From: Escherichia coli | GTDB taxonomy: Bacteria; Pseudomonadota; Gammaproteobacteria; Enterobacterales; Enterobacteriaceae | Reading direction: 5' to 3' (one strand) | DNA length: 64,000 nucleotides | NCBI RefSeq assembly: GCF_001677475.2 | Contig: NZ_CP015229.1 | In this document: one piece after another, positions 10,805 through 44,195 of the stretch | How the letters are laid out: each line of letters starts with the position of its first letter | Numbering within the stretch: the first letter of the stretch is position 1 | The notes under the pieces: model-generated | The model's database searches: none | What the model was told of the DNA's origin: nothing | What the model saw: only the letters and a program-made list of their open reading frames with translations | Position numbers and translations under genes: made by a program

Positions 10805-12001
10805 ATGTCCGTTTTCTCATTGAAGATTGATATCGCCGATAACAAATTTTTCAACGGCGAAACATCACCGCTCTTTTCGCAAAGCCAGGCCAAACTGGCG
10901 CGCCAGTTCCACCAGAAAATAGCTGGTTATCGCCCAACACCGCTTTGTGCGCTGGACGATCTCGCAAACCTTTTTGGTGTGAAGAAAATTCTCGTCAAAG
11001 ACGAATCAAAACGATTCGGTCTGAACGCCTTCAAAATGCTCGGCGGTGCGTACGCTATCGCTCAATTATTGTGTGAAAAATATCATCTTGATATCGAAAC
11101 GCTGTCATTTGAGCACCTGAAAAATGCCATCGGCGAAAAAATGACCTTTGCGACCACCACCGACGGCAACCACGGGCGCGGTGTGGCATGGGCCGCTCAG
11201 CAACTCGGTCAGAACGCGGTGATTTACATGCCGAAAGGTTCTGCTCAGGAACGCGTTGACGCCATTCTGAACCTCGGTGCCGAGTGCATCGTCACGGATA
11301 TGAACTATGACGATACCGTTCGCCTGACCATGCAACACGCGCAGCAGCACGGCTGGGAAGTGGTACAGGACACGGCATGGGAAGGTTACACAAAAATCCC
11401 AACCTGGATCATGCAAGGCTACGCAACACTGGCAGATGAAGCCGTCGAGCAAATGCGTGAAATGGGCGTAACCCCGACGCACGTTCTGCTGCAAGCCGGT
11501 GTCGGTGCAATGGCCGGTGGTGTGCTGGGTTATCTGGTCGACGTCTACAGCCCGCAAAATCTGCACAGCATTATTGTTGAACCTGACAAAGCTGACTGTA
11601 TTTATCGCTCTGGCGTCAAAGGCGACATCGTCAACGTTGGCGGTGATATGGCCACCATCATGGCAGGCCTGGCCTGTGGCGAACCTAACCCGCTGGGGTG
11701 GGAAATCCTACGTAACTGCGCCACCCAATTCATCTCCTGCCAGGACAGCGTTGCCGCATTAGGTATGCGCGTACTGGGTAATCCGTACGGCAACGATCCA
11801 CGCATCATCTCCGGTGAATCTGGCGCTGTCGGTTTGGGCGTTCTCGCGGCGGTTCATTATCACCCGCAACGTCAAAGCCTGATGGAAAAACTGGCGCTGA
11901 ACAAAGATGCCGTAGTGCTGGTTATCAGCACTGAAGGCGACACCGACGTGAAGCACTACCGCGAAGTTGTCTGGGAAGGCAAACACGCTGTAGCACCTTA
12001 A
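10805..12001 (+). CDS. ygeX: diaminopropionate ammonia-lyase (PLP-dependent)
   Basis: 398 aa; PLP-dependent fold; conserved position after ygeW. Confidence 0.88.
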   Translation: MSVFSLKIDIADNKFFNGETSPLFSQSQAKLARQFHQKIAGYRPTPLCALDDLANLFGVKKILVKDESKRFGLNAFKMLGGAYAIAQLLCEKYHLDIETLSFEHLKNAIGEKMTFATTTDGNHGRGVAWAAQQLGQNAVIYMPKGSAQERVDAILNLGAECIVTDMNYDDTVRLTMQHAQQHGWEVVQDTAWEGYTKIPTWIMQGYATLADEAVEQMREMGVTPTHVLLQAGVGAMAGGVLGYLVDVYSPQNLHSIIVEPDKADCIYRSGVKGDIVNVGGDMATIMAGLACGEPNPLGWEILRNCATQFISCQDSVAALGMRVLGNPYGNDPRIISGESGAVGLGVLAAVHYHPQRQSLMEKLALNKDAVVLVISTEGDTDVKHYREVVWEGKHAVAP

Positions 12002-15728: not shown

Positions 15729-17354
15729 TTAAGCCACTTCCAGCACTTCTTTTGTCGCTTTAACGCCCTGATGCATCAACATCATTAACGCCTCAAGTAC
15801 GCCGCCGCCAATTGCCCGGGCTTTATCAGAAACGCTGGTGAAATCAGCCGTTTCACCACGTGGATCGATATCACCAATTTTAAAACCACCGACCACCGCC
15901 AGTCCGTCGTTCAACAAGCCACGCACCATCCCCGTCAACGGTGCTTTAATTTCATGCTCACCAATCCAGGCAATCACATCGCCCTCTTTCACCAGATCGC
16001 CTAATTTCACGTTGGATCGCATAATGCCTGCAGCAGGAGCACGGATCACCCGTCGGGTGGTATGCCCCATAATATTGCCGGGAACACCGGTATTCTCCTG
16101 CGCACAACCAGAGTAAATCACCTGACCGAGCCAGTGCCCGCGATTTGTTTCAATTACCGCGTGGCAATCCTTCCCAGCAGTAAAGCCCGGCCCAAGCGCG
16201 ATTGTTACTGGTGCCATGTCTGCCCGCGTACCCAAATTCTGTTTCGCCAGAATAGCGTCCACCACGCAAAGCGGTTTCAGTTCATCAAGCAATGAACAGG
16301 CGGGATCTACCATCACAGGGATGAATCCGCGTTCGGTAAGTTTCATCGCTTCCGCAGAGCTGGTTGCCAGGCGGGCAGTGACGCCTTCGACCGTCATTTC
16401 GCCATCGAACACGGCCTGGGCAAACGCCACGGTACAACGAATCACTGTCGGTTGTTCCACTTCCAGCATGATCACTTTAAAACCCGCATGATACAGACGT
16501 AGCGCCACACCACTGGCGATATCCCCCGCACCGCGAATCACCACCAGCTGGTGTCCGGAAGGATGAGAAGGTTTCATCATCAGCCCACCCGGCGCGTTAT
16601 TTTTCACCTGTAATATTTCTGCCAGCACGCTGATGGCGATCTCCTGCGGCGTTTCCGCACCTATGTTGTAACCAACGGGCGCATGTAAACGGGCAATATG
16701 TTCTTCAGCCACGCCTTTTTCACGAAGTTGACGCAAGAAAAGCTGAACCTTGCGACGACTTGCCAGCAACCCCAGCCATGCAATGGGCTGTTCAATGAGT
16801 TTGTCGAGGGCTTCACGATCCTGATTATTCGTGGCAATCAGGACAAAATTATCATGGCGAATATCCAGTGCTTCCACTGCCGCACCAAACGACTCAGCAT
16901 GGAGAAGCGTGGTTGATGGTGGAAATAATTCAGGATTAAGGCTTTCGCGATAAATATCGGCAACGGCAATTTCAAATCCTAATAGCGCCGCACTTTGGGC
17001 TATCGCCCGGTTGACATGCCCCGCGCCAATCAACACCAGACGAGGACGCATACCATGGACGCTGATAAACACGGACATTGCACCTCCACAATCTGACCCG
17101 ACAGCATCCACACCGTTACGAGCCATACGTCCATGGAATAATCGCGGCTTACGCTCCTGCAATGCCTGAAGCGACTCTTCAATCACCTTCCGCTCAACCA
17201 TTCCGCCACCAATTGTACCGACGATAGAGCCATCGGCGCGCACTAACATTTGTGCAGAATGGCGGGGAGTCGAGCCTCGGCTATCAACAATTTGCGCCAT
17301 CGCAAACGGACAATTTTGCTCTTCGAGTTTTGCAGCCTCTGTGAAAATATTCAT
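15729..17354 (-). CDS. yqeB: YqeB; XdhC/CoxI-like molybdenum-hydroxylase maturation protein (selenium-dependent molybdenum hydroxylase marker)
   Basis: 541 aa; XdhC-like accessory domains; partner of yqeC. Confidence 0.85.
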   Translation of the reverse strand: MNIFTEAAKLEEQNCPFAMAQIVDSRGSTPRHSAQMLVRADGSIVGTIGGGMVERKVIEESLQALQERKPRLFHGRMARNGVDAVGSDCGGAMSVFISVHGMRPRLVLIGAGHVNRAIAQSAALLGFEIAVADIYRESLNPELFPPSTTLLHAESFGAAVEALDIRHDNFVLIATNNQDREALDKLIEQPIAWLGLLASRRKVQLFLRQLREKGVAEEHIARLHAPVGYNIGAETPQEIAISVLAEILQVKNNAPGGLMMKPSHPSGHQLVVIRGAGDIASGVALRLYHAGFKVIMLEVEQPTVIRCTVAFAQAVFDGEMTVEGVTARLATSSAEAMKLTERGFIPVMVDPACSLLDELKPLCVVDAILAKQNLGTRADMAPVTIALGPGFTAGKDCHAVIETNRGHWLGQVIYSGCAQENTGVPGNIMGHTTRRVIRAPAAGIMRSNVKLGDLVKEGDVIAWIGEHEIKAPLTGMVRGLLNDGLAVVGGFKIGDIDPRGETADFTSVSDKARAIGGGVLEALMMLMHQGVKATKEVLEVA

Positions 17355-17401
17355 ACCAACCTCAATGGATATCCTTTCAGTAACCCGGAATACCCGGGCC
17401 G

Positions 17402-18172
17402 CTAATTCACAAATCTGCGCGCGATTGCAGGATGTTCTTGTATATCGCCCAGCCAGATTGCCTCTACGTTGTGTTGTTGCAGCGGTTGAAGGAGCTCGCT
17501 TTGCGCAATCGCATTCTCACATTGAGAAAAACGGTTAATGAACCAGACTCGCCGACAACCTTGCGGTACGTTTTTAAATGCGCCCTGAGGGTGGCGAACC
17601 AGCGCAACGAGATCGCTCAGTTGCAAGGTTGCATCAGGTGTTAACCCGGTAATATCAGCAAACTGCGACCAGCGATGGACATTTTCTGTGCTCACTTTCG
17701 CACCCAAAATATGTCCTCCCATCACAGCAATCACGCAGCAACTGCTTTTGGGTATGCAAGGTTCGTGCTCATCAGGCGCTTTTAACGGCATTCCACGCGA
17801 GCCATCTGCCTCAATGAGAATTACGTCACACTCTGGTCGTTGCACCAGTGCATCAATCGCTTCTGGCGTAAATCCCTGCACTTTTCCCTGGTTCGCTTTC
17901 CAGCTGTGAAAACAAAATGAAATGGGGGATGTAAGAGACGTATGAGGAAGCATGGCGGGATCACGACAGAAAACCACGGGCCAGTGAGACGTTGGCATAA
18001 ACATATGTGTCGTCGTAGTGATTAACACACGCCTGCCGCTAGCCTGGAGTAGTTCTGCCAGCCAAAAAAGCAAGCTGGTTTTCCCCCCAGCACCAACAAC
18101 AGAAATCACAGTGGGACGTTTCTGCGCGCCTAAATCAATGAATAATGCCGATGGGTCAACTATACTTTTCAC
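17402..18172 (-). CDS. yqeC: YqeC; P-loop protein (second selenium-dependent molybdenum hydroxylase marker)
   Basis: 256 aa; Walker A-like VVGAGGKTS near the N-terminus. Confidence 0.85.
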   Translation of the reverse strand: MKSIVDPSALFIDLGAQKRPTVISVVGAGGKTSLLFWLAELLQASGRRVLITTTTHMFMPTSHWPVVFCRDPAMLPHTSLTSPISFCFHSWKANQGKVQGFTPEAIDALVQRPECDVILIEADGSRGMPLKAPDEHEPCIPKSSCCVIAVMGGHILGAKVSTENVHRWSQFADITGLTPDATLQLSDLVALVRHPQGAFKNVPQGCRRVWFINRFSQCENAIAQSELLQPLQQHNVEAIWLGDIQEHPAIARRFVN

Positions 18173-18274
18173 GAGTCTTTATGACCTCTCTGGGATAAAT
18201 TACCCCCAACTTAATCCATCAGGAAGTAACGCAATTATCAGGCGTTATTAGCCCCTATAAATAATGGAACCACT

Positions 18275-18853
18275 ATGTCAGCCATCGACTGTATAATTAC
18301 CGCTGCCGGATTATCATCAAGAATGGGGCAATGGAAAATGATGTTACCCTGGCAACAGGGAACAATTCTTGATACAAGTATCAAAAATGCGTTGCAGTTT
18401 TGTAGCCGAATTATTTTAGTCACCGGCTATCGTGGTAATGAACTGCACGAACGTTATGCGAACCAGAGCAATATCACTATTATACACAACCCAGATTATG
18501 CGCAGGGTTTACTAACATCAGTAAAGGCCGCAGTACCCGCGGTAAAAACAGAATATTGTTTTCTCACCCACGGTGACATGCCTACCCTCACCATCGATAT
18601 TTTTAGAAAAATCTGGTCGTTACGAAATGATGGCGCAATACTGCCACTCCATAATGGCATTCCCGGCCATCCGATTTTAGTGTCAAAGCCATGCCTGATG
18701 CAGGCAATCCAGCGTCCCAATATCACCAATATGCGTCAAGCACTCCTTATGGGAGAACATTATTCCGTCGAAATAGAAAATGCAGAAATAATTTTAGATA
18801 TTGATACTCCAGACGACTTTATTACAGCGAAAAAAAGGTATACTGAAATTTAG
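18275..18853 (+). CDS. mocA: molybdenum cofactor cytidylyltransferase
   Basis: 192 aa; MobA-like nucleotidyltransferase (N-terminus ITAAGLSSRMG). Confidence 0.88.
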   Translation: MSAIDCIITAAGLSSRMGQWKMMLPWQQGTILDTSIKNALQFCSRIILVTGYRGNELHERYANQSNITIIHNPDYAQGLLTSVKAAVPAVKTEYCFLTHGDMPTLTIDIFRKIWSLRNDGAILPLHNGIPGHPILVSKPCLMQAIQRPNITNMRQALLMGEHYSVEIENAEIILDIDTPDDFITAKKRYTEI

Positions 18854-19087
18854 AAAACGTAGTTAAACGATTGCGTTCAAATATTTAACCCTTCCAGTTC
18901 TCTTTATCATAATGATAAGGAATCACTGATTTTGAGAAAAGAGAAAAAGTGATAAATGGGTTGCCAATAATAATTTCCAGGAGTGATTTTAATTCTCATT
19001 TGGCACCTGTGAGTTCATTCACAAAAAGCCCCTAAGTTTCGAGCCGCCTCACATTTTTTTATATTTCCCGCCAAACCTGGCAAGAGT

Positions 19088-19103
19088 GGTGCGATTGTTG
19101 CTC
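19088..19103 (+). promoter_or_regulatory. candidate sigma54 promoter upstream of ygfK: TGGCaagagtgGTGC
   Basis: GG and GC at canonical spacing, about 72 nt upstream of ygfK; -12 element GTGC, so imperfect. Confidence 0.3.
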
Positions 19104-19174
19104 TATCCCCCTAAACCACCGGATTTCTCAACACCGGTCACTCAATGATATCTGTATAAGCTAAGGAGAGGGTT

Positions 19175-22100
19175 ATGGGGGATATTATGCGTCCCATTCC
19201 GTTTGAGGAACTTTTGACGCGCATATTTGATGAATACCAACAACAACGCTCAATCTTTGGTATTCCCGAGCAACAGTTTTACTCACCCGTAAAAGGTAAA
19301 ACTGTTAGCGTCTTCGGTGAAACCTGTGCCACTCCCGTCGGCCCTGCCGCTGGCCCGCACACGCAGCTCGCGCAAAATATTGTCACTTCCTGGCTGACTG
19401 GCGGACGCTTCATCGAACTAAAAACCGTCCAAATTCTTGACCGCCTGGAGCTGGAAAAGCCCTGTATCGATGCCGAAGACGAGTGCTTTAACACCGAATG
19501 GTCTACCGAATTTACCCTGCTTAAAGCCTGGGATGAATACCTCAAAGCCTGGTTTGCCCTGCACCTTCTCGAAGCGATGTTCCAGCCTTCTGATTCCGGT
19601 AAATCGTTCATCTTTAATATGAGCGTCGGTTACAACCTCGAAGGTATTAAGCAACCGCCGATGCAACAGTTCATCGACAATATGATGGACGCATCTGACC
19701 ATCCGAAATTCGCTCAATATCGCGATACACTGAATAAATTACTCCAGGATGACGCATTTTTAACCCACCACGGATTGCAGGAAAAGCGCGAAAGCTTGCA
19801 AGCCTTACCCGCTCGCATCCCCACCAGCATGGTGCAGGGCGTCACCCTCTCCACCATGCACGGCTGTCCTCCGCATGAAATTGAAGCCATTTGCCGCTAC
19901 ATGCTGGAAGAAAAAGGGCTCAATACCTTTGTGAAACTCAACCCGACCTTACTGGGGTACGCGCGTGTTCGTGAGATCCTCGATGTCTGCGGTTTCGGTT
20001 ACATAGGCTTAAAAGAAGAGTCATTTGATCACGACCTCAAGCTGACGCAAGCGCTGGAAATGCTGGAACGCCTGATGTCACTGGCAAAAGAAAAATCACT
20101 CGGCTTTGGCGTAAAACTGACTAACACTCTCGGCACCATCAACAATAAAGGCGCACTGCCTGGTGAAGAGATGTATATGTCAGGCCGTGCGCTGTTCCCG
20201 CTCTCCATCAATGTTGCAGCAGTTCTCTCTCGCGCCTTTGACGGCAAACTGCCCATTTCTTATTCCGGTGGTGCCAGTCAGCTGACTATCCGCGATATTT
20301 TTGATACTGGTATTCGCCCTATTACTATGGCAACCGACCTGCTGAAACCTGGCGGCTATCTGCGCTTAAGTGCCTGCATGCGCGAGCTGGAAGGCTCCGA
20401 CGCCTGGGGGCTTGACCATGTTGACGTCGAACGACTGAACAAACTGGCAGCAGACGCGTTAACCATGGAATACACCCAGAAACACTGGAAGCCAGAAGAG
20501 CGTATTGAAGTGGCAGAAGACCTGCCGCTGACCGACTGCTACGTTGCCCCCTGTGTTACTGCCTGCGCTATCAAGCAAGATATTCCGGAATACATCCGTT
20601 TGCTTGGCGAACATCGCTATGCTGACGCGCTGGAACTCATCTACCAACGCAACGCCCTGCCCGCCATTACCGGTCATATTTGCGATCACCAGTGCCAATA
20701 CAACTGTACCCGCCTGGATTACGACAGTGCGCTGAATATCCGTGAACTGAAAAAAGTCGCGCTGGAAAAAGGTTGGGATGAATATAAGCAACGCTGGCAC
20801 AAACCAGCCGGTTCTGGTTCACGCCATCCGGTTGCCGTGATTGGTGCAGGTCCGGCGGGTCTGGCAGCAGGTTACTTCCTTGCCAAAGCGGGCCATCCGG
20901 TTACGCTGTTTGAACGCGAAGCCAATGCGGGCGGCGTGGTGAAAAATATCATTCCTCAGTTCCGTATTCCTGCAGAGTTAATTCAGCACGATATCGATTT
21001 TGTTGCCGCTCACGGCGTGAAATTTGAGTATGGCTGCTCACCCGATCTGACCGTTGAACAGTTAAAAAATCAGGGCTTCCACTATGTCCTGATTGCCACC
21101 GGCACTGATAAAAATAGCGGTGTGAAACTGGCGGGCGACAACCAAAATGTCTGGAAATCACTCCCCTTCCTGCGTGAATACAACAAGGGCACAGCGCTCA
21201 AGCTGGGCAAACATGTGGTCGTTGTCGGGGCGGGTAACACGGCAATGGACTGCGCTCGTGCGGCGTTACGCGTTCCAGGCGTAGAAAAAGCAACGGTCGT
21301 TTACCGTCGTTCACTGCAAGAGATGCCAGCATGGCGCGAAGAGTATGAAGAAGCGTTGCACGACGGTGTGGAGTTCCGTTTCCTGAATAATCCGGAACGT
21401 TTCGATGCTGATGGCACCTTAACCTTGCGCGTTATGTCGCTTGGCGAACCTGATGAAAAAGGTCGTCGCCGTCCGGTTGAAACCAACGAAACAGTAATAC
21501 TGCATGTAGACAGCCTGATCACCGCCATTGGTGAACAGCAGGATACTGAAGCCCTGAATGCGATGGGCGTGCCGCTGGACAAAAACGGCTGGCCAGACGT
21601 CGACCATAATGGCGAAACTCGTCTGACTGACGTCTTTATGATCGGCGACGTACAGCGCGGACCATCCTCCATTGTCGCTGCTGTCGGAACCGCGCGTCGG
21701 GCGACCGATGCCATCCTTAGTCGGGAAAATATCCGTTCCCACCAGAGCGATAAATACTGGAATAACGTCAATCCGGCGGAAATCTATCAACGCAAAGGCG
21801 ATATCTCTATCACCCTGGTGGATAGCGACGATCGTGACGCGTTTGTCGCCCAGGAAGCCGCACGCTGCCTTGAATGTAACTACGTTTGCAGCAAGTGTGT
21901 GGATGTCTGCCCGAACCGCGCCAACGTATCCATTGCGGTCCCTGGCTTCCAGAACCGTTTCCAGACGCTGCACCTCGATGCTTACTGTAACGAATGCGGC
22001 AACTGCGCTCAGTTCTGTCCGTGGAACGGTAAACCGTACAAAGACAAAATCACCGTCTTCAGCCTGTCGCAAGACTTTGATAACAGCAGCAACCCTGGCT

Positions 22101-22273
22101 TCCTTGTGGAAGATTGCCGGGTACGAGTACGTCTGAATAACCAAAGCTGGGTGTTAAGCATCGACAGCGAAGGTCAGTTCAACAACGTACCACCGGAGCT
22201 GAACGATATGTGCCGCATCATTAGCCATGTCCACCAGCATCATCATTATCTGCTGGGCCGTGTGGAGGTGTAA
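19175..22273 (+). CDS. ygfK: large Fe-S / FAD-NAD(P) oxidoreductase (putative selenate reductase-type subunit YgfK)
   Basis: 1032 aa; Rossmann GxGxxG motifs ([24 protein letters not shown]) and C-terminal cysteine clusters; continuous frame with no internal stop. Confidence 0.88.
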   Translation: MGDIMRPIPFEELLTRIFDEYQQQRSIFGIPEQQFYSPVKGKTVSVFGETCATPVGPAAGPHTQLAQNIVTSWLTGGRFIELKTVQILDRLELEKPCIDAEDECFNTEWSTEFTLLKAWDEYLKAWFALHLLEAMFQPSDSGKSFIFNMSVGYNLEGIKQPPMQQFIDNMMDASDHPKFAQYRDTLNKLLQDDAFLTHHGLQEKRESLQALPARIPTSMVQGVTLSTMHGCPPHEIEAICRYMLEEKGLNTFVKLNPTLLGYARVREILDVCGFGYIGLKEESFDHDLKLTQALEMLERLMSLAKEKSLGFGVKLTNTLGTINNKGALPGEEMYMSGRALFPLSINVAAVLSRAFDGKLPISYSGGASQLTIRDIFDTGIRPITMATDLLKPGGYLRLSACMRELEGSDAWGLDHVDVERLNKLAADALTMEYTQKHWKPEERIEVAEDLPLTDCYVAPCVTACAIKQDIPEYIRLLGEHRYADALELIYQRNALPAITGHICDHQCQYNCTRLDYDSALNIRELKKVALEKGWDEYKQRWHKPAGSGSRHPVAVIGAGPAGLAAGYFLAKAGHPVTLFEREANAGGVVKNIIPQFRIPAELIQHDIDFVAAHGVKFEYGCSPDLTVEQLKNQGFHYVLIATGTDKNSGVKLAGDNQNVWKSLPFLREYNKGTALKLGKHVVVVGAGNTAMDCARAALRVPGVEKATVVYRRSLQEMPAWREEYEEALHDGVEFRFLNNPERFDADGTLTLRVMSLGEPDEKGRRRPVETNETVILHVDSLITAIGEQQDTEALNAMGVPLDKNGWPDVDHNGETRLTDVFMIGDVQRGPSSIVAAVGTARRATDAILSRENIRSHQSDKYWNNVNPAEIYQRKGDISITLVDSDDRDAFVAQEAARCLECNYVCSKCVDVCPNRANVSIAVPGFQNRFQTLHLDAYCNECGNCAQFCPWNGKPYKDKITVFSLSQDFDNSSNPGFLVEDCRVRVRLNNQSWVLSIDSEGQFNNVPPELNDMCRIISHVHQHHHYLLGRVEV

Positions 22274-22275
22274 TC

Positions 22276-23604
22276 ATGTTGATTCTGAAGAATGTCACCG
22301 CAGTGCAGTTACACCCAGCGAAAGTGCAGGAAGGCGTTGATATCGCCATCGAAAATGATGTGATTGTCGCTATCGGCGATGCCCTGACGCAACGCTACCC
22401 CGATGCCAGCTACAAAGAGATGCATGGTCGGATTGTGATGCCAGGAATTGTCTGCTCGCACAACCATTTTTACTCGGGGCTGTCCCGCGGAATTATGGCA
22501 AACATCGCCCCCTGCCCGGATTTCATCTCAACGCTGAAAAATCTCTGGTGGCGACTCGATCGCGCCCTTGATGAAGAGTCGCTCTATTACAGCGGACTGA
22601 TTTGTTCCCTGGAAGCGATTAAGAGCGGATGTACATCGGTTATCGATCACCATGCCTCTCCGGCGTATATCGACGGGTCGCTCTCCACATTGCGCAACGC
22701 ATTTTTAAAAGTTGGCCTGCGCGCGATGACCTGTTTTGAAACTACTGACCGTAACAACGGCATCAAAGAGTTGCAGGAAGGTGTAGAAGAAAACATCCGC
22801 TTCGCCCGTCAGATTGATGAGGCGAAGAAAGCAGCAACTGAGCCGTATCTGGTGGAAGCACATATCGGCGCTCACGCGCCGTTTACCGTGCCGGATGCCG
22901 GTCTGGAAATGCTGCGCGAAGCCGTAAAAGCCACTGGGCGTGGTTTACACATTCACGCTGCTGAAGATCTTTACGACGTTTCTCACAGTCACCACTGGTA
23001 CGGCAAAGATCTGCTGGCACGGCTGGCGCAATTCGATCTTATCGATAGCAAAACGCTGGTCGCCCACGGCCTGTATCTGTCGAAAGAGGATATCGCCCTG
23101 CTTAATCAGCATGACGCGTTCCTGGTACATAACGCCCGCTCCAACATGAATAACCATGTTGGTTACAACCATCATCTTAGCGATATCCGCAATCTGGCAC
23201 TGGGAACCGATGGTATCGGTTCAGACATGTTTGAAGAGATGAAATTCGCCTTCTTTAAACATCGTGACGCTGGTGGTCCGCTGTGGCCTGACAGTTTTGC
23301 CAAAGCCCTGACTAACGGCAACGAACTAATGAGTCGCAACTTTGGTGCGAAATTCGGCCTTCTGGAAGCCGGTTATAAAGCTGATTTAACCATTTGCGAT
23401 TACACCTCGCCAACGCCGTTGCTGGCGGACAATATCGCCGGGCATATCGCTTTCGGTATGGGCTCAGGCAGCGTTCACAGCGTGATGGTCAATGGTGTGA
23501 TGGTCTATGAAGACCGACAGTTTAACTTCGATTGCGATTCCATTTATGCGCAAGCCAGAAAAGCCGCTGCCAGTATGTGGCGTCGGATGGATGCGCTGGC
23601 ATAA
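22276..23604 (+). CDS. ssnA: amidohydrolase-family protein (cytosine/guanine deaminase-like)
   Basis: 442 aa; metal-dependent hydrolase HxH motif (SHNHF); 2-bp gap from ygfK. Confidence 0.88.
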   Translation: MLILKNVTAVQLHPAKVQEGVDIAIENDVIVAIGDALTQRYPDASYKEMHGRIVMPGIVCSHNHFYSGLSRGIMANIAPCPDFISTLKNLWWRLDRALDEESLYYSGLICSLEAIKSGCTSVIDHHASPAYIDGSLSTLRNAFLKVGLRAMTCFETTDRNNGIKELQEGVEENIRFARQIDEAKKAATEPYLVEAHIGAHAPFTVPDAGLEMLREAVKATGRGLHIHAAEDLYDVSHSHHWYGKDLLARLAQFDLIDSKTLVAHGLYLSKEDIALLNQHDAFLVHNARSNMNNHVGYNHHLSDIRNLALGTDGIGSDMFEEMKFAFFKHRDAGGPLWPDSFAKALTNGNELMSRNFGAKFGLLEAGYKADLTICDYTSPTPLLADNIAGHIAFGMGSGSVHSVMVNGVMVYEDRQFNFDCDSIYAQARKAAASMWRRMDALA

Positions 23605-23654
23605 ATGACAAATACCCTCTTCCCGTAGGGAAGAGGGTTAAATAAGGAAAGAAG

Positions 23655-24434
23655 ATGATTGAACAATTTTTTAGGCCCGACTCTGTCGAACAGGCGCTGG
23701 AACTGAAGCGCTGCTACCAGGATGAAGCCGTCTGGTTCGCCGGGGGCAGCAAACTCAACGCTACACCAACCCGTACCGATAAAAAGATTGCCATTTCCTT
23801 ACAGGATCTGGAACTGGACTGGGTTGACTGGGATAACGGTGCACTGCGGATTGGCGCAATGTCTCGCTTGCAGTCACTGCGTGATGCGCGATTTATTCCT
23901 GCAGCACTGCGTGAAGCCCTCGGCTTTGTCTACTCTCGCCATGTTCGTAATCAGTCGACCATTGGTGGTGAAATCGCCGCCCGGCAGGAAGAGTCTGTGC
24001 TGCTTCCCGTCCTGCTGGCACTGGATGCTGAACTGGTTTTTGGCAATGGCGAAACACTGTCAATCGAAGAGTACCTGGCCTGCCCATGCGATCGCCTGCT
24101 AACCGAAATTATCATTAAAGATCCGTATCGCACCTGTGCGACCCGCAAAATTAGCCGTTCTCAGGCAGGTTTAACCGTCGTGACGGCAGCCGTTGCAATG
24201 ACAGACCACGACGGTATGCGAATTGCGCTGGATGGCGTCGCCAGTAAAGCCCTGCGTCTGCACGATGTTGAAAAACAAAATCTGGAAGGCAATGCACTTG
24301 AACAGGCTGTCGCCAACGCCATTTTCCCGCAGGAAGATTTGCGGGGCAGCGTGGCCTATAAACGCTATATCACGGGAGTTCTGGTAGCCGACCTGTATGC
24401 CGACTGCCAACAGGCTGGGGAGGAAGCCGTATGA
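23655..24434 (+). CDS. ygfM: FAD-binding subunit of a molybdopterin dehydrogenase
   Basis: 259 aa; CO dehydrogenase flavoprotein-like (AGGSKLN). Confidence 0.85.
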   Translation: MIEQFFRPDSVEQALELKRCYQDEAVWFAGGSKLNATPTRTDKKIAISLQDLELDWVDWDNGALRIGAMSRLQSLRDARFIPAALREALGFVYSRHVRNQSTIGGEIAARQEESVLLPVLLALDAELVFGNGETLSIEEYLACPCDRLLTEIIIKDPYRTCATRKISRSQAGLTVVTAAVAMTDHDGMRIALDGVASKALRLHDVEKQNLEGNALEQAVANAIFPQEDLRGSVAYKRYITGVLVADLYADCQQAGEEAV

Positions 24435-27301
24435 TCATCCACTTTACTTTAAATGGCGCGCCTCAGGAGCTAACCGTTAATCCAGGCGAAAACGTGCAAA
24501 AGCTGTTGTTTAACATGGGAATGCACTCTGTACGCAACAGCGATGATGGATTCGGGTTTGCCGGTTCTGACGCAATTATCTGTAACGGTAATATCGTTAA
24601 CGCGTCCTTGCTTATTGCCGCACAGTTAGAGAAGGCAGATATTCGTACCGCAGAATCTCTGGGCAAATGGAACGAGTTAAGTCTGGTTCAACAGGCAATG
24701 GTTGATGTTGGCGTGGTGCAGTCTGGTTATAACGATCCAGCTGCAGCTCTGATTATCACCGATCTTCTCGATCGCATCGCCGCACCTACCCGCGAAGAGA
24801 TCGACGACGCGCTTTCTGGTTTGTTCAGCCGCGATGCAGGCTGGCAACAATACTATCAGGTCATTGAACTGGCGGTTGCACGTAAAAATAATCCGCAGGC
24901 CACCATTGATATCGCTCCGACTTTCCGTGACGACCTTGAAGTCATTGGCAAGCATTATCCTAAAACTGATGCCGCGAAAATGGTGCAGGCGAAACCCTGC
25001 TATGTTGAAGACCGCATAACGGCTGACGCCTGCGTCATTAAAATGTTACGTAGCCCACACGCTCACGCACTGATTACTCATCTGGATGTCAGCAAAGCTG
25101 AAGCCTTACCGGGCGTCGTTCACGTTATTACTCACCTGAATTGCCCGGATATCTACTATACCCCGGGTGGTCAGAGCGCACCGGAACCGTCACCGCTTGA
25201 CCGCCGTATGTTCGGCAAGAAAATGCGTCATGTCGGCGATCGTGTTGCTGCGGTCGTCGCAGAAAGTGAAGAAATTGCGCTCGAAGCACTGAAGCTCATC
25301 GACGTTGAATATGAAGTGCTTAAGCCGGTAATGTCGATCGACGAAGCAATGGCGGAAGATGCGCCTGTCGTGCACGATGAACCAGTGGTGTATGTTGCTG
25401 GTGCGCCAGATACTCTGGAAGACGATAACAGCCATGCAGCCCAGCGCGGCGAGCATATGATCATCAACTTCCCGATCGGTTCTCGCCCTCGCAAAAATAT
25501 CGCTGCCAGTATTCATGGTCATATTGGCGATATGGACAAAGGCTTTGCCGATGCCGATGTGATCATTGAGAGAACCTATAACTCAACGCAGGCACAGCAG
25601 TGCCCGACTGAAACACATATCTGCTTTACCCGGATGGACGGCGATCGTCTGGTTATCCACGCCTCCACCCAGGTACCATGGCACTTACGCCGCCAGGTCG
25701 CGCGCCTCGTGGGCATGAAACAGCATAAAGTTCATGTCATTAAAGAGCGAGTTGGCGGCGGTTTTGGTTCCAAACAGGACATCCTGCTGGAAGAAGTGTG
25801 CGCCTGGGCAACCTGCGTGACCGGGCGTCCGGTACTGTTCCGCTACACCCGTGAAGAAGAGTTTATTGCTAACACCTCTCGTCACGTCGCGAAAGTCACC
25901 GTCAAACTGGGAGCGAAAAAAGATGGTCGCCTGACGGCAGTGAAGATGGATTTCCGCGCCAACACTGGCCCTTACGGCAACCACTCACTCACCGTACCGT
26001 GTAACGGACCGGCGCTGTCGCTGCCGTTATATCCGTGCGATAACGTCGATTTCCAGGTCACCACCTACTACAGCAACATTTGCCCAAATGGTGCTTATCA
26101 GGGTTATGGCGCACCGAAAGGTAACTTCGCTATCACCATGGCATTAGCGGAACTGGCTGAACAGTTACAGATCGACCAACTGGAAATTATCGAACGTAAC
26201 CGGGTACACGAAGGGCAAGAGCTGAAAATTCTCGGTGCAATCGGTGAAGGTAAAGCGCCGACCTCTGTTCCTTCCGCCGCCAGCTGCGCACTGGAAGAGA
26301 TCCTGCGTCAGGGGCGCGAGATGATCCAATGGTCGTCACCGAAACCGCAAAATGGTGACTGGCATATCGGTCGCGGCGTCGCCATTATCATGCAGAAATC
26401 GGGGATCCCGGATATCGATCAGGCTAACTGCATGATCAAACTGGAATCGGACGGTACCTTTATCGTTCATTCTGGAGGTGCGGATATTGGTACTGGTCTG
26501 GATACTGTGGTGACGAAACTGGCAGCAGAAGTGCTGCACTGCCCACCGCAGGACGTGCATGTTATCTCCGGTGATACCGATCATGCCTTGTTTGATAAAG
26601 GCGCATATGCCTCGTCCGGTACTTGCTTCTCGGGTAACGCGGCGCGTTTAGCAGCGGAAAATCTGCGGGAGAAAATTCTGTTCCACGGCGCGCAAATGTT
26701 GGGTGAGCCAGTGGCAGATGTTCAACTAGCAACGCCGGGCGTCGTGCGCGGCAAGAAAGGCGAAGTTAGTTTCGGGGATATTGCCCATAAAGGCGAAACC
26801 GGCACCGGCTTTGGTTCACTGGTGGGAACTGGCAGTTATATCACGCCTGATTTCGCCTTCACGTATGGCGCAAACTTCGCTGAAGTTGCCGTCAATACGC
26901 GTACGGGTGAAATCCGCCTGGATAAATTCTACGCCTTGCTGGACTGCGGTACACCGGTCAATCCAGAGTTAGCGTTGGGACAAATCTACGGTGCCACCCT
27001 GCGTGCTATCGGCCACAGTATGAGCGAAGAGATCATTTATGACGCCGAAGGTCACCCGTTAACGCGTGATTTACGCAGTTACGGCGCACCGAAAATTGGT
27101 GACATTCCGCGTGATTTCCGCGCTGTGTTGGTGCCGAGCGACGATAAAGTCGGCCCGTTCGGGGCAAAATCGATCTCGGAAATCGGTGTAAATGGCGCAG
27201 CTCCGGCGATTGCTACCGCAATTCACGATGCCTGCGGCATCTGGTTACGCGAATGGCATTTCACACCGGAGAAAATACTCACCGCGCTGGAAAAAATATA
27301 A
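24431..27301 (+). CDS. xdhD: molybdopterin-dependent hydroxylase fused to an N-terminal 2Fe-2S-like domain
   Basis: 956 aa; aldehyde oxidase/xanthine dehydrogenase-type large subunit; start overlaps the ygfM stop (ATGA). Confidence 0.9.
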   Translation: MIIHFTLNGAPQELTVNPGENVQKLLFNMGMHSVRNSDDGFGFAGSDAIICNGNIVNASLLIAAQLEKADIRTAESLGKWNELSLVQQAMVDVGVVQSGYNDPAAALIITDLLDRIAAPTREEIDDALSGLFSRDAGWQQYYQVIELAVARKNNPQATIDIAPTFRDDLEVIGKHYPKTDAAKMVQAKPCYVEDRITADACVIKMLRSPHAHALITHLDVSKAEALPGVVHVITHLNCPDIYYTPGGQSAPEPSPLDRRMFGKKMRHVGDRVAAVVAESEEIALEALKLIDVEYEVLKPVMSIDEAMAEDAPVVHDEPVVYVAGAPDTLEDDNSHAAQRGEHMIINFPIGSRPRKNIAASIHGHIGDMDKGFADADVIIERTYNSTQAQQCPTETHICFTRMDGDRLVIHASTQVPWHLRRQVARLVGMKQHKVHVIKERVGGGFGSKQDILLEEVCAWATCVTGRPVLFRYTREEEFIANTSRHVAKVTVKLGAKKDGRLTAVKMDFRANTGPYGNHSLTVPCNGPALSLPLYPCDNVDFQVTTYYSNICPNGAYQGYGAPKGNFAITMALAELAEQLQIDQLEIIERNRVHEGQELKILGAIGEGKAPTSVPSAASCALEEILRQGREMIQWSSPKPQNGDWHIGRGVAIIMQKSGIPDIDQANCMIKLESDGTFIVHSGGADIGTGLDTVVTKLAAEVLHCPPQDVHVISGDTDHALFDKGAYASSGTCFSGNAARLAAENLREKILFHGAQMLGEPVADVQLATPGVVRGKKGEVSFGDIAHKGETGTGFGSLVGTGSYITPDFAFTYGANFAEVAVNTRTGEIRLDKFYALLDCGTPVNPELALGQIYGATLRAIGHSMSEEIIYDAEGHPLTRDLRSYGAPKIGDIPRDFRAVLVPSDDKVGPFGAKSISEIGVNGAAPAIATAIHDACGIWLREWHFTPEKILTALEKI

Positions 27302-27310
27302 GTAATAAAT

Positions 27311-27338
27311 GGCCGCTTCGGCGGCCTGTTTCTCTGTT
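27311..27338 (+). terminator. rho-independent terminator GGCCGC-ttcg-GCGGCC followed by a T-rich run, after xdhD
   Basis: Stem-loop and T-rich tail read directly. Confidence 0.6.
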
Positions 27339-27465
27339 TGAACGATGACTAAATAGTGACTGCGAAAATGAGATAAGCCGTTCTCAAGGCGTCCTGCGCC
27401 CCAAATTCGTGGGAATTTATTTTACTAATTCAGATGATCAAATTTACTTTAAAAGGAGTGAAGGG

Positions 27466-28866
27466 ATGTCTGATATAAACCATGCAGGTTCTGACCTTAT
27501 ATTTGAACTGGAGGATCGCCCTCCCTTTCATCAGGCTCTCGTTGGTGCCATTACCCATCTGTTGGCAATTTTTGTTCCGATGGTAACCCCCGCGTTAATC
27601 GTGGGTGCAGCCTTACAGCTTTCCGCTGAAACAACCGCCTATCTTGTTTCTATGGCGATGATCGCCTCTGGTATTGGTACCTGGTTACAAGTAAACCGCT
27701 ACGGCATCGTCGGTTCTGGCCTACTCTCAATTCAGTCAGTCAATTTTTCATTTGTTACGGTCATGATTGCGCTGGGCAGCAGCATGAAAAGCGACGGTTT
27801 TCACGAAGAGTTAATCATGTCGTCGCTCCTCGGCGTCTCCTTCGTTGGCGCATTTCTGGTTGTCGGATCTTCATTTATCTTGCCCTATTTACGTCGGGTT
27901 ATTACGCCTACCGTCAGCGGTATTGTGGTACTGATGATCGGCTTAAGCCTGATTAAAGTCGGCATTATCGATTTTGGTGGAGGATTTGCAGCCAAAAGCA
28001 GCGGTACGTTCGGCAATTACGAACATCTCGGCGTTAGTTTATTGGTTTTAATTGTGGTGATCGGCTTTAACTGCTGTCGCAGTCCGTTGCTACGCATGGG
28101 AGGGATCGCCATTGGGCTATGTGTCGGCTATATCGCATCGTTATGCCTGGGCATGGTGGATTTCAGCAGTATGCGCAATTTGCCGTTAATCACCATCCCG
28201 CATCCGTTCAAATACGGCTTTAGTTTTAGCTTCCATCAGTTCCTGGTGGTTGGCACGATTTATCTGCTTAGCGTGCTGGAAGCTGTCGGCGATATCACCG
28301 CCACGGCAATGGTTTCCCGCCGCCCCATTCAGGGGGAAGAGTATCAGTCCCGACTGAAAGGCGGCGTGCTGGCAGATGGTCTGGTTTCTGTTATCGCCTC
28401 CGCTGTCGGTTCATTACCATTAACCACGTTTGCGCAAAATAATGGGGTTATTCAGATGACTGGCGTCGCTTCACGTTATGTCGGGCGAACCATCGCGGTA
28501 ATGCTGGTTATCCTCGGCTTATTTCCGATGATTGGCGGCTTCTTCACAACCATACCCTCGGCAGTTCTGGGAGGCGCAATGACGTTGATGTTTTCCATGA
28601 TTGCTATCGCCGGGATTCGCATCATCATCACCAACGGTTTAAAGCGCCGAGAAACACTTATTGTCGCCACTTCTTTAGGTTTAGGACTTGGCGTCTCCTA
28701 CGATCCCGAAATTTTTAAAATATTGCCAGCCTCTATTTATGTACTAGTTGAAAACCCTATTTGTGCTGGCGGGTTAACTGCGATTTTATTAAATATTATC
28801 CTCCCTGGTGGCTACCGACAGGAAAACGTTCTGCCTGGTATTACCTCAGCGGAAGAGATGGATTAA
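27466..28866 (+). CDS. xanQ: xanthine permease (NCS2/NAT family)
   Basis: Translation from MSDINHAGSDL; multi-pass membrane protein; supplied ORF extends 19 codons upstream; ribosome-binding site AAAGGAG just before this ATG. Confidence 0.88.
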   Translation: MSDINHAGSDLIFELEDRPPFHQALVGAITHLLAIFVPMVTPALIVGAALQLSAETTAYLVSMAMIASGIGTWLQVNRYGIVGSGLLSIQSVNFSFVTVMIALGSSMKSDGFHEELIMSSLLGVSFVGAFLVVGSSFILPYLRRVITPTVSGIVVLMIGLSLIKVGIIDFGGGFAAKSSGTFGNYEHLGVSLLVLIVVIGFNCCRSPLLRMGGIAIGLCVGYIASLCLGMVDFSSMRNLPLITIPHPFKYGFSFSFHQFLVVGTIYLLSVLEAVGDITATAMVSRRPIQGEEYQSRLKGGVLADGLVSVIASAVGSLPLTTFAQNNGVIQMTGVASRYVGRTIAVMLVILGLFPMIGGFFTTIPSAVLGGAMTLMFSMIAIAGIRIIITNGLKRRETLIVATSLGLGLGVSYDPEIFKILPASIYVLVENPICAGGLTAILLNIILPGGYRQENVLPGITSAEEMD

Positions 28867-28880
28867 CAGTAAAGGAGTCA

Positions 28881-30200
28881 ATGATGTCAGGAGAACACAC
28901 GTTAAAAGCGGTACGAGGCAGTTTTATTGATGTCACCCGTACGGTCGATAACCCGGAAGAGATTGCCTCTGTGCTGCGGTTTATTAAGGATGGTTTATTA
29001 CTCATTAAACAGGGAAAAGTGGAATGGTTTGGCGAATGGGAAAACGGAAAGCATCAAATTCCTGACACCATTCGCGTGCGCGACTATCGCGGCAAACTTA
29101 TAGTACCGGGCTTTGTCGATACACATATCCATTATCCGCAAAGTGAAATGGTGGGGGCCTATGGTGAACAATTGCTGGAGTGGTTGAATAAACACACCTT
29201 CCCTACTGAACGTCGTTATGAGGATTTAGAGTACGCCCGCGAAATGTCGGCATTCTTCATCAAGCAGCTTTTACGTAACGGAACCACCACGGCGCTGGTG
29301 TTTGGCACTGTTCATCCGCAATCCGTTGATGCGCTGTTTGAAGTCGCCAGTCATATCAATATGCGTATGATTGCCGGTAAGGTGATGATGGACCGCAACG
29401 CACCGGATTATCTGCTCGACACTGCCGAAAGCAGCTATCACCAAAGCAAAGAGCTGATCGAACGCTGGCACAAAAATGGTCGTCTGTTGTATGCGATTAC
29501 GCCACGCTTCGCCCCTACCTCATCTCCTGAACAGATGGCGATGGCGCAACGCCTGAAAGAAGAATATCCGGATACGTGGGTACATACCCATCTCTGTGAA
29601 AACAAAGATGAAATTGCCTGGGTGAAATCGCTTTATCCTGACCATGATGGTTATCTTGATGTTTACCATCAGTACGGCCTGACCGGTAAAAATTGTGTCT
29701 TTGCTCACTGCGTCCATCTCGAAGAAAAAGAGTGGGATCGTCTCAGCGAAACCAAATCCAGCATTGCTTTCTGTCCGACCTCCAACCTTTACCTCGGCAG
29801 CGGCTTATTCAACTTGAAAAAAGCATGGCAGAAGAAAGTCAAAGTGGGCATGGGAACGGATATCGGTGCCGGAACAACTTTTAACATGCTGCAAACGCTG
29901 AACGAAGCCTACAAGGTATTGCAATTACAAGGCTATCGCCTCTCGGCATATGAAGCGTTTTACCTGGCCACGCTCGGCGGAGCGAAATCTTTGGGCCTTG
30001 ACGATTTGATTGGCAACTTTTTACCTGGCAAAGAGGCTGATTTCGTGGTGATGGAACCCACCGCCACTCCGCTACAGCAGCTGCGCTATGACAACTCTGT
30101 TTCTTTAGTCGACAAATTGTTCGTGATGATGACGTTGGGCGATGACCGTTCGATCTACCGCACCTACGTTGATGGTCGTCTGGTGTACGAACGCAACTAA
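28881..30200 (+). CDS. guaD: guanine deaminase
   Basis: Translation from MMSGEHTLKAVRGSF; amidohydrolase HxH motif (DTHIHYPQ); ribosome-binding site AAAGGAG upstream; the supplied ORF has a 40-codon N-terminal extension that I reject. Confidence 0.9.
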   Translation: MMSGEHTLKAVRGSFIDVTRTVDNPEEIASVLRFIKDGLLLIKQGKVEWFGEWENGKHQIPDTIRVRDYRGKLIVPGFVDTHIHYPQSEMVGAYGEQLLEWLNKHTFPTERRYEDLEYAREMSAFFIKQLLRNGTTTALVFGTVHPQSVDALFEVASHINMRMIAGKVMMDRNAPDYLLDTAESSYHQSKELIERWHKNGRLLYAITPRFAPTSSPEQMAMAQRLKEEYPDTWVHTHLCENKDEIAWVKSLYPDHDGYLDVYHQYGLTGKNCVFAHCVHLEEKEWDRLSETKSSIAFCPTSNLYLGSGLFNLKKAWQKKVKVGMGTDIGAGTTFNMLQTLNEAYKVLQLQGYRLSAYEAFYLATLGGAKSLGLDDLIGNFLPGKEADFVVMEPTATPLQQLRYDNSVSLVDKLFVMMTLGDDRSIYRTYVDGRLVYERN

Positions 30201-34046: not shown

Positions 34047-34397
34047 TTGCATCCCTTTCATTTAATGAGTTATGTCTTCTCAAATTTCGCGATGCAATAA
34101 ATGGGCATATATTAGGTAGCATGGCCGATTTAATTATAATTTTGCGACTGAGTTCAAATTATTGCCCCTCAATCTGTGCCGCTTTCATTATTTCAACATT
34201 GCCGACCAAAAGAGAGCTAACCAGATAAAAACGATTAAATACGAGAGTGCGACATGCCAGAATGATTAATGAAATATCAATATGAGAAAATTACAGATAA
34301 TTCCATTGTCAGGTTCTCTTCTCATTTTCGTGGTTTAACCACGATTATGTGATTGCCTCCGCAATTCCTGTCTCTAACTCCCCTTCCTCGCAAAAAC

Positions 34398-34413
34398 TGG
34401 CACTCCACGAGCA
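34398..34413 (+). promoter_or_regulatory. candidate sigma54 promoter upstream of uacT: TGGCACtccacgaGCA
   Basis: TGGCAC at -24 and GC at -12 with canonical spacing, about 69 nt upstream of uacT. Confidence 0.35.
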
Positions 34414-38287: not shown

Positions 38288-38296
38288 GTTGGTTCC

Positions 38297-39395: not shown

Positions 39396-39485
39396 GGTCT
39401 GATTTCTTTTATTGAGCTAGTCAAAATGCGGTGATAAGAGCGGGATTGTACCCAATCCACGCTCTTTTTTATAGAGAAGATGACG

Positions 39486-41219: not shown

Positions 41220-41224
41220 GCGAA

Positions 41225-41935
41225 TTATTTACCGCTGGTCATTTTTTGGTGTTCGTCGAGGAATTCTTTCATGTCTTTCGGTGGCTGGTAACCCGGAACA
41301 AGTGTGCCATTGCTCAGCACAATTGCCGGTGTGCCGCTAACGCCAAGCTGGACGCCAAGTGCGTAATGATCGGCAATATCGATATCGCAACTTGCCGGAG
41401 TGGCAGCTTTACCTGCCATCACATCATCAAACGCTTTGTTTTTATCTTTCGCACACCAGATAGCTTTCATTTCTTTCTCTGCATCGCTGTCCAGCCCCTG
41501 GCGCGGGAAAGCAAGATAACGCACGGTGATCCCCAGCGCGTTGTAGTCTGCCATTTGCTCATGCAGTTTGTGGCAGTAACCACAGGTAATATCAGTAAAC
41601 ACGGTGATGACGTGTTTTTCCTGCGGCGCTTTATAAACGATCATCTCTTTTTCAAGCGCATTCAACTGCTTTAACAGCATCTTATTGGTGACATTGACCG
41701 GAGCCGTGCCACTAACGTCATACATTGGCCCCTGAATGATATGTTTACCATCATCGGTGATGTACAACACACCGCTGTTAGTCAGAACTGTCTTCATGCC
41801 AGCTACAGGCGCGGGCTGAATATCGCTGCTTTTGATGCCCATTTTGGCTAACGTTTGTTGAATTGCCGCGTCATCAGCCTGAGCAAAGCCTGAAAACGCC
41901 GCTAACAAAGTAAACAACATAAAACCTTTCTTCAT
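41225..41935 (-). CDS. dsbC: thiol:disulfide interchange protein DsbC
   Basis: 236 aa; signal peptide and thioredoxin-fold CGYC active site. Confidence 0.92.
   Translation of the reverse strand: MKKGFMLFTLLAAFSGFAQADDAAIQQTLAKMGIKSSDIQPAPVAGMKTVLTNSGVLYITDDGKHIIQGPMYDVSGTAPVNVTNKMLLKQLNALEKEMIVYKAPQEKHVITVFTDITCGYCHKLHEQMADYNALGITVRYLAFPRQGLDSDAEKEMKAIWCAKDKNKAFDDVMAGKAATPASCDIDIADHYALGVQLGVSGTPAIVLSNGTLVPGYQPPKDMKEFLDEHQKMTSGK

Positions 41936-43528: not shown

Positions 43529-44195
<667 letters not shown>

Follow-up and report, generated by a model that had tools for sequence, protein, structure and literature searches.

Anaerobic urate breakdown and the ygfK-ssnA-ygfM-xdhD operon of Escherichia coli: an XdhD without the usual [2Fe-2S] cysteine ligands

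What chemistry is encoded by ygfK, ssnA, ygfM, and xdhD, four tightly packed genes at positions 19175-27301 of a 64,000-nucleotide stretch of Escherichia coli DNA (contig NZ_CP015229.1; hereafter, the window)? In the original prediction the genes were taken for a single four-gene hydroxylase system of unknown substrate, carrying molybdenum, flavin, and iron-sulfur (FeS) centers. The open reading frame list of the window reproduces the predicted layout exactly (gaps of 2 bp and 50 bp and a 4-bp overlap), and all four reading frames are intact. The description of the substrate as unknown is outdated, given that urate and 2,8-dioxopurine were shown for the E. coli proteins in 2025. We conclude that the locus is very probably a sigma-54-dependent operon for steps 1 to 3 of the reductive ("2,8-dioxopurine") pathway by which uric acid is degraded anaerobically. 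Substrate, pathway, promoter, and co-regulation are already known from publications. The remaining interest lies in three features: (i) an XdhD that appears to be free of clusters, (ii) a hairpin at the boundary between two gene modules, and (iii) a candidate binding site for the regulator YgeV.

Three consecutive enzymes of urate degradation

The function of the locus is assigned because its four proteins are orthologous to E. coli proteins assayed in two 2025 studies (Li et al., PMC12507026; Liu et al., bioRxiv 10.1101/2025.04.24.650524), both of which assign to the operon the three reactions with which anaerobic breakdown of uric acid begins. By these reports the earlier guess of anaerobic urate reduction was right, and the substrate now defined is urate itself rather than an unrelated compound. 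All four genes lie on the plus strand and begin with ATG. YgfK (19175-22273; 1032 aa) gives a full-length match to the equivalog model TIGR03315 (1776 bits versus a curated cut-off of 835). SsnA (22276-23604; 442 aa) gives full-length matches to TIGR03314 (739.5 versus 455.5 bits) and NF005540 (709.6 versus 444 bits). YgfM (23655-24434; 259 aa) matches TIGR03312 (485 bits versus a curated cut-off of 241), and XdhD (24431-27301; 956 aa) matches TIGR03313 (2116 bits versus 1101.9) over profile positions 1-951 of 951. The 8.1-kb segment has 98% DNA identity to E. coli and is covered to at least 80% in 5168 of 5426 complete E. coli genomes, which annotate it as ygfK/ssnA/ygfM/xdhD. For XdhD the protein sequence is the one most common in E. 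coli, with 100% identity to a database cluster of 8988 E. coli sequences.

In the first step, XdhD, as the molybdenum subunit, would reduce urate to 2,8-dioxopurine together with its flavin adenine dinucleotide (FAD)-binding partner YgfM. Tagged E. coli XdhD with a co-purifying band of ~30 kDa (putatively YgfM) and NADH converted urate to 2,8-dioxopurine ("yanthine"), and a delta-xdhD strain builds up urate and does not make 2,8-dioxopurine (PMC12507026). YgfK, by orthology an NAD(P)H-dependent 2,8-dioxopurine reductase, would then reduce (dearomatize) the pyrimidine ring of 2,8-dioxopurine. SsnA, by orthology the amidohydrolase acting next, would open the reduced ring to give ureidomethyl-hydantoin and 5-ureido-dihydrouracil. 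Both products were obtained from 2,8-dioxopurine with SsnA, NAD(P)H, and YgfK carrying reconstituted FeS clusters, and ureidomethyl-hydantoin is not made in a delta-ygfK strain (PMC12507026). Conversion of urate to acetate is lost in delta-ygfK and delta-ssnA E. coli, and ygfK is induced by urate (10.1101/2022.07.24.501321). Clostridium sporogenes has the same pathway, in which the first enzyme (DOPDH) needs SelD and has a labile selenium cofactor (10.1101/2025.04.24.650524).

Accessory functions for XdhD appear to be encoded next to the operon. The gene mocA (18275-18853, plus strand), which adjoins ygfK in most related loci, encodes a molybdenum cofactor cytidylyltransferase that would supply the cytosine dinucleotide form of the cofactor. 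Two genes on the opposite strand, yqeB (15729-17354) and yqeC (17402-18172), are identified from the open reading frame list and E. coli annotation as accessory genes of selenium-dependent molybdenum hydroxylases, and their products may add selenium to the cofactor. The link to YqeB/YqeC drawn earlier is upheld, as both genes neighbor the hydroxylase in the window and are adjacent in most XdhD-containing loci. The gene selD is situated outside the window.

Gene identities and domain content also came out as originally read. The products are an amidohydrolase, a molybdenum hydroxylase with its FAD subunit, and an FeS/FAD/flavin mononucleotide (FMN) reductase like dihydropyrimidine dehydrogenase (DPD). 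The reductase, YgfK, has Pfam matches to Fer4_20 (residues 453-532) and Pyr_redox_2 (552-839), with weak 4Fe-4S matches near 895-955, and its matches to Protein Data Bank (PDB) sequences are confined to about residues 436-895 (NfnA, GltD, and residues 63-499 of pig DPD). The Pfam search gave no domain for residues 1-450 (window 19175-20524). For this region we collected 1448 representatives at the 50%-identity clustering level and aligned 59 of them for structure prediction. The resulting AlphaFold model has a predicted local distance difference test (pLDDT) score of 94.5, and Foldseek places pig DPD and dihydroorotate dehydrogenases (DHODH) first, with probability 1.0; the N-terminal barrel is only 14-17% identical to DPD. 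Two ferredoxin-type cysteine motifs, C898-C912 and C938-C948, lie at the C-terminus. On the basis of the model and these matches, YgfK is DPD-like, with a predicted FMN-binding TIM barrel at the N-terminus, an FeS helical domain, an FAD/NAD(P)H region, and two [4Fe-4S] clusters, all cofactors being predicted. This agrees with the modeling of Li et al. (PMC12507026).

The four genes do not form one hydroxylase system, as had been supposed. We compared 80 loci around ssnA orthologs, one genome per species, onto which the genes of the purine island were mapped. All related loci that extend past the 5' end of ssnA have ygfK as its immediate upstream neighbor, and with two exceptions the gap is -4 to +30 bp. 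When a locus has both ygfM and xdhD, they are adjacent (gap -4 to +4 bp), and where ssnA and ygfM are adjacent their spacer is the longest of the three (27-96 bp). The two pairs also occur apart. Photobacterium and Ferrimonas have other genes between ygfK-ssnA and ygfM-xdhD, and ygfM there has a sigma-54 element of its own; in Vibrio the order is xdhD-guaD-ghxQ-ygfK-ssnA. In Klebsiella, Raoultella, Kluyvera, Enterobacter, Cedecea, Kosakonia, and Rahnella, ygfK-ssnA is followed directly by ygfS/ygfT/uacT, and ygfM-xdhD is absent within 10 kb. Because the pairs occur apart in other genomes, and in view of the published biochemistry, ygfK-ssnA and ygfM-xdhD are two separable modules that encode three consecutive enzymes, not one four-subunit hydroxylase.

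Loci with ygfK-ssnA and no ygfM-xdhD within 10 kb are L018-L022, L024-L032, L039, L062, L063, L065, and L072, several of which also lack yqeB/yqeC. Among the loci examined, a third type of three-subunit molybdenum hydroxylase lies beside uacT and mocA in L026, L031, and L063. The "xdhA-like" genes found beside ygfK-ssnA where a species has no xdhD were considered as XdhD in disguise. This was rejected, because their identity to XdhA and to XdhD alike is about 28%, the Arg that XdhD replaces (see below) is present, and the insertion containing E606 of XdhD is absent.

Gut bacteria that degrade urate by this pathway clear a substantial part of human uric acid, with relevance to gout and kidney disease, as already published.

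The iron-sulfur domain of XdhD and rival readings of the locus

XdhD contains Pfam domains Fer2_2, the a/b-hammerhead PF01315 (Ald_Xan_dh_C), and the molybdenum cofactor (MoCo)-binding domains PF02738 and PF20256 (MoCoBD_1/2). Its predicted catalytic residue, E917, aligns with the Glu of the "GEPP" motif of XdhA. As judged from these sequence matches, XdhD has the hammerhead, the two MoCo-binding domains, and the catalytic Glu of the xanthine oxidase family. Among PDB sequences, the one that XdhD matches best is 4-hydroxybenzoyl-CoA reductase from Thauera aromatica, in its alpha subunit (1RM6; E 2.7e-80). XdhD had been called distinct from XdhABC, and this is borne out by 29% identity to XdhA and by the active-site comparison, in which Q557 replaces an Arg of XdhA and E606 lies within an 11-residue insertion that XdhA does not have. 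Q557, E606, and E917 are invariant in 45/45 distinct orthologs, and E606 was highlighted by Li et al., who proposed that it orients urate (PMC12507026). YgfM can be aligned with XdhB and shares its AGGS and TIGGE motifs, which identifies YgfM as the FAD-binding subunit, with FAD predicted. An extra [4Fe-4S] cluster in YgfM, as in the FAD subunit of 4-hydroxybenzoyl-CoA reductase, was considered and rejected, as only two cysteines are conserved in YgfM.

Perhaps the most unexpected feature of the locus is the N-terminal domain of XdhD. Residues 1-165 are homologous to subunits with two [2Fe-2S] clusters (Pfam Fer2_2, E 6e-12), and Foldseek ranks small FeS subunits highest against the AlphaFold model of this region, namely those of nicotinate dehydrogenase, glyceraldehyde oxidoreductase, 4-hydroxybenzoyl-CoA reductase, and CO dehydrogenase. 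All eight cysteines that would bind the clusters are nevertheless missing from the domain (window 24431-24940, residues 1-170). The ligand columns hold D38, A44, D47, and S59, and S98, N101, S133, and D135, and XdhC of the window has Cys at all eight. The same replacements recur in 45/45 distinct orthologs from the loci and, among 117 database representatives with at least 75% identity, in 114-117, and the absence of the eight cysteines holds in all gammaproteobacterial XdhD orthologs examined. The replacement motifs NSDDGFGFAGSDAI, VQSGYNDPAAAL, and LSGLFSRDAGYQQ are invariant in XdhD orthologs. Model confidence is lowest (pLDDT <50) precisely at the former cluster-II loop, residues 33-54. 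XdhD itself is thus not an iron-sulfur protein of the usual kind, with all eight [2Fe-2S] cysteine ligands replaced. Two [2Fe-2S] clusters, each bound through four cysteines, are a hallmark of the xanthine oxidase family, and alignment and model together predict that XdhD lacks them though it keeps the fold.

Distant XdhD orthologs were sought on seven contigs, four of which are too short to hold one. A metagenomic ortholog (L083:20419-23123) is 49.8% identical to XdhD and has all eight cysteines, Q557, and the E606 insertion. A ygfM-like gene lies directly 5' of it with a 4-bp overlap, and the cluster also contains ygfK, ssnA, ygeY, and ygeX. Because this ortholog keeps all eight cysteines, we regard their loss in XdhD as derived.

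In this enzyme family electrons pass from FAD through the two clusters to Mo, and in the bovine and Rhodobacter structures the distance between FAD and Mo is too long for direct transfer. With only two conserved cysteines, YgfM would give no substitute cluster. The published scheme for XdhD-YgfM runs from NADH to FAD (in YgfM) to Mo (PMC12507026), and is left unexplained by an XdhD without cluster ligands. Several alternatives may be considered. XdhD may work as a ping-pong "transhydroxylase", with a second substrate reducing the same Mo site; an external FeS donor may be involved, perhaps tied to the formate/YgfT/AegA requirement; or the subunit geometry of XdhD-YgfM may be unexpected. The cysteine loss is not mentioned in the main text of either 2025 study (PMC12507026; 10.1101/2025.04.24.650524) or in the reviews searched, a search that did not cover older papers such as Xi et al. 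2000. If true, a cluster-free XdhD would be a new cofactor arrangement in a very well studied family, and the published NADH-FAD-Mo scheme would need revision. The choice of electron donor and partner protein in engineering urate-degrading probiotics would also be affected. The RefSeq name "Mo/Fe-S-binding subunit" for XdhD appears doubtful in view of the replaced ligands; this name and "putative selenate reductase subunit YgfK" should be corrected in databases.

Could YgfK nevertheless be the missing relay? In such a reading, the four products would form one molybdo-flavo-iron-sulfur complex, with YgfK as the FeS/flavin electron input to the Mo site of XdhD. The four genes would share one sigma-54 promoter, and an external relay would make sense for an XdhD without FeS ligands encoded beside a YgfK rich in FeS motifs. 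We consider a single complex improbable all the same. XdhD is not needed for E. coli YgfK, alone or together with SsnA, to act on 2,8-dioxopurine (PMC12507026; 10.1101/2025.04.24.650524), and no YgfK-sized band was reported with tagged XdhD, only the ~30 kDa partner (PMC12507026). The pairs are split or reordered in Photobacterium, Ferrimonas, and Vibrio, and many Enterobacteriaceae have ygfK-ssnA with xdhD absent within 10 kb. Judging from its kept fold, the degenerate FeS domain would still occupy the position needed by a relay to the cofactor.

Older names for the gene products imply other functions, to which we give less credence still. "Probable hypoxanthine oxidase XdhD", as some sources have it, would make XdhD a second hypoxanthine/purine hydroxylase working oxidatively, and the C. 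sporogenes homolog does also run from 2,8-dioxopurine to urate (10.1101/2025.04.24.650524). This is very improbable for the E. coli enzyme: deletion of xdhA ends xanthine consumption despite the presence of xdhD, delta-xdhD cells accumulate urate with no 2,8-dioxopurine (PMC12507026), and the Arg conserved in xanthine-oxidizing enzymes is Gln557 in XdhD. The older annotation as a selenate reductase has the RefSeq and TIGRFAM names behind it ("putative selenate reductase subunit YgfK" in RefSeq and NCBIfam), as well as the linkage to the selenium-cofactor genes yqeB and yqeC. It is largely refuted, and we regard it as the least credible of these readings, given that selenium-dependent maturation of the molybdenum enzyme accounts for the link to selenium, that selenate had no effect on purified YgfK (Liu et al. 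2025, 10.1101/2025.04.24.650524), and that the genes are induced by urate and needed for its conversion to acetate (10.1101/2022.07.24.501321).

The preferred assignment, a reductive urate pathway encoded by three enzymes, also has points that weigh against it. It is made by orthology at ~98% DNA identity, the experiments being on other E. coli sequence. Selenium dependence was shown for the C. sporogenes enzyme and not for E. coli XdhD (10.1101/2025.04.24.650524). The 2025 papers disagree on YgfK, which was found active alone with NADPH in one account and active only when coupled to SsnA, with NAD(P)H, in the other (PMC12507026; 10.1101/2025.04.24.650524). Finally, the NADH-driven assay of XdhD-YgfM was an end-point measurement by liquid chromatography-mass spectrometry at 10 uM enzyme (PMC12507026); it is hard to square with the absent [2Fe-2S] ligands, and the electron path is not established.

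Promoter, regulatory sites, and transcript

A sigma-54 promoter of the -24/-12 type precedes ygfK, the first gene, on the plus strand at 19086-19102 (GTGGTGCGATTGTTGCT, with GG at -24 and GC at -12). The match to the -24/-12 pattern, with its fixed spacing, is TGGTGCGATTGTTGCT at 19087-19102. Across the whole window a loose sigma-54 pattern occurs at chance level (44 versus 45 expected). The ygfK site is accepted because of its phylogenetic footprint and its match to a published site: a -24/-12 element lies upstream of ygfK in ~75/75 distinct loci, from Escherichia to Photobacterium, Vibrio, Aeromonas, and Reinekea, and the sequence at 19086-19102 is identical to OS31, a K-12 sigma-54 site located upstream of ygfK by chromatin immunoprecipitation sequencing (ChIP-seq) (PMC4591121). 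The YgeV iModulon, defined from transcriptomes, includes ygfK, ssnA, ygfM, and xdhD. A further sigma-54-like -24/-12 element with two mismatches, TGGCACTCCACGAGCA at 34398-34413, lies ~70 bp upstream of uacT, which is also in the YgeV iModulon.

About 180 bp upstream of the ygfK promoter lies a palindrome, TATCATAATGATA (18905-18917), that may be an upstream activating site for YgeV. The pattern TATCA-N3-TGATA, with at most one mismatch, occurs seven times in the window versus 1.28 expected, and 0/100 shuffles reach seven. Five of the seven copies fall within the four intergenic regions that bear the ChIP-seq sigma-54 sites of the island; beside the ygfK copy, these lie upstream of xdhA (3397-3409), between ygeV and ygeW (9138-9150 and 9236-9248), and between ygfT and uacT (34275-34287). 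Each of the island's four sigma-54 promoters has the palindrome 100-310 bp ahead of it. Among related loci, 72/74 have a palindrome within 450 bp upstream of ygfK, compared with 0.043 per kb as background in coding sequence. Where ygfM-xdhD stands apart, the pair has its own sigma-54-like element with tandem palindrome copies. Together, these patterns make TATCA-N3-TGATA a good candidate for the sequence at which YgeV, the island's enhancer-binding protein, binds; no published YgeV binding site was found in the papers searched. A perfect copy of the palindrome, TATCATCTTGATA, also occurs at 11081-11093 inside ygeX (dpaL), and may be either chance or an internal regulatory site.

Situated between the palindrome and the ygfK promoter is a CRP-type site, TGTGAGTTCATTCACA (19008-19023), which matches TGTGA-N6-TCACA perfectly and is conserved across Enterobacterales by inspection. 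Urate degradation is repressed by glucose (PMC12507026), and the candidate CRP site is consistent with this report. We suggest that YgeV, encoded nearby, would activate transcription via the TATCA-N3-TGATA sites, with input from CRP.

One transcript is predicted to run from the ygfK promoter to the end of xdhD. In favor of this, the 50-bp ssnA-ygfM spacer has no room for a promoter and its hairpin has no T-tail, the four genes are co-expressed in the YgeV iModulon, and a terminator-like hairpin with a T-rich tail (GGCCGC-TTCG-GCGGCC; 27311-27340, plus strand) follows xdhD. Scans for consensus sigma-70 promoters and terminators were at chance overall (11 versus 10.5 and 10 versus 10.9 expected, respectively), and two hairpins were kept. 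An Rfam scan of positions 17000-29000 gave no match at E up to 1.

Translational coupling of all four genes, as first proposed, holds within the two pairs and not between them. As read from the sequence, ssnA follows ygfK after 2 bp, with GGAGG within the 3' end of ygfK, and ygfM and xdhD share an ATGA stop/start overlap (-4 bp) with GGAGG ahead. The pairs are separated by the 50-bp spacer, which contains a hairpin with a perfect 11-bp stem and a 3-nt loop (23614-23638, plus strand; -19.9 kcal/mol, z -4.5). Uninterrupted stems of at least 7 bp are present in 34/38 distinct ssnA-ygfM spacers from other genera, and 22/38 fold better than shuffles at z < -2; a T-rich tail follows the hairpin in 0/38. 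Stem sequences differ between genera, and one compensatory change, C-G to U-A at the loop-closing pair, was found between Escherichia strains. Hairpins of different genera are not alignable, and their conservation rests on presence, stability, and this one compensatory pair. In several loci where no gene separates ssnA from a convergent ygfS (e.g., L020, L024, L027, and L031), ssnA is followed instead by a hairpin that has a U-tract. The ssnA-ygfM hairpin is probably an element that protects or processes mRNA 3' ends, or a weak pause, at the module boundary. Our literature search found no paper on it.

Bringing these features together, we tentatively propose, with slightly less than even confidence in the whole, that E. 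coli-type XdhD has lost both [2Fe-2S] clusters while retaining the FAD subunit and the FeS-domain fold. The FAD-FeS-FeS-Mo wire would then be broken, and urate reduction would be driven in another way. Secondarily, TATCA-N3-TGATA would be the enhancer site of YgeV, and the ssnA-ygfM hairpin would set the ratio of the two enzyme modules.

Genomic setting and comparison with known systems

The order of genes around the operon is that of the E. coli purine island: xdhABC, ygeV, ygeW-ygeX-ygeY-hyuA-yqeA, yqeB/yqeC (opposite strand), mocA, ygfK-ssnA-ygfM-xdhD, and then xanQ-guaD-ghxQ, ygfS/ygfT, and uacT. At the DNA level, the window differs by 1.5-2% from each of the complete E. coli genomes searched. 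Specifically, the best identity of segments 19175-27301 and 36770-44000 to any of the 5426 complete genomes is 98.0-98.5%. One locus in the comparison set, L002, is labeled "E. coli E69" and has an identity of only 92.5%. Compared with ygfK-ssnA-ygfM-xdhD of E. coli K-12 (b2878-b2881), the genes, their order, lengths, and junctions are the same, and there is no difference of substance beyond the DNA divergence.

XdhD shares with E. coli XdhABC and the xanthine dehydrogenase (XDH) of Rhodobacter capsulatus (1JRO) the hammerhead, two molybdenum-cofactor-binding domains, the catalytic Glu, and a separate FAD subunit. It differs from them in having Gln557 in place of Arg, the E606 insertion, and an FeS domain that is degenerate and fused to the molybdenum subunit. 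Its reaction also differs, being the reductive removal of O6 of urate and not a hydroxylation. A closer parallel in chemistry is 4-hydroxybenzoyl-CoA reductase, which is, like XdhD, a reductive dehydroxylase of the xanthine oxidase family. Both [2Fe-2S] clusters are retained in that enzyme, and its FAD subunit carries a further [4Fe-4S] cluster, whereas XdhD lacks cluster ligands and YgfM has only two conserved cysteines.

The second and third steps resemble reductive pyrimidine breakdown by DPD and dihydropyrimidinase (PydA/PydB). YgfK has the same set of modules as DPD, and SsnA then hydrolyzes the reduced ring as PydB does. The PydA/PydB pathway acts on pyrimidines, whereas YgfK acts on a purine substrate. 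In pig DPD (structure 1H7W) the barrel comes after the FAD/NADPH domains; in YgfK the domain order is permuted and the barrel is N-terminal.

Among other bacteria with this pathway, the C. sporogenes system described in the 2025 preprint carries out the same first two reactions as in E. coli, and both systems are linked to YqeB/YqeC/SelD. Neither NADH nor NADPH serves the clostridial first enzyme, its assay relied on methyl viologen, and its SelD dependence was shown directly, whereas E. coli XdhD was assayed with NADH. The XdhD of Clostridioides difficile is reported to be without a YgfM subunit (Li et al., PMC12507026). In contrast, E. coli-type XdhD has YgfM as its partner, yet none of the eight FeS cysteines.

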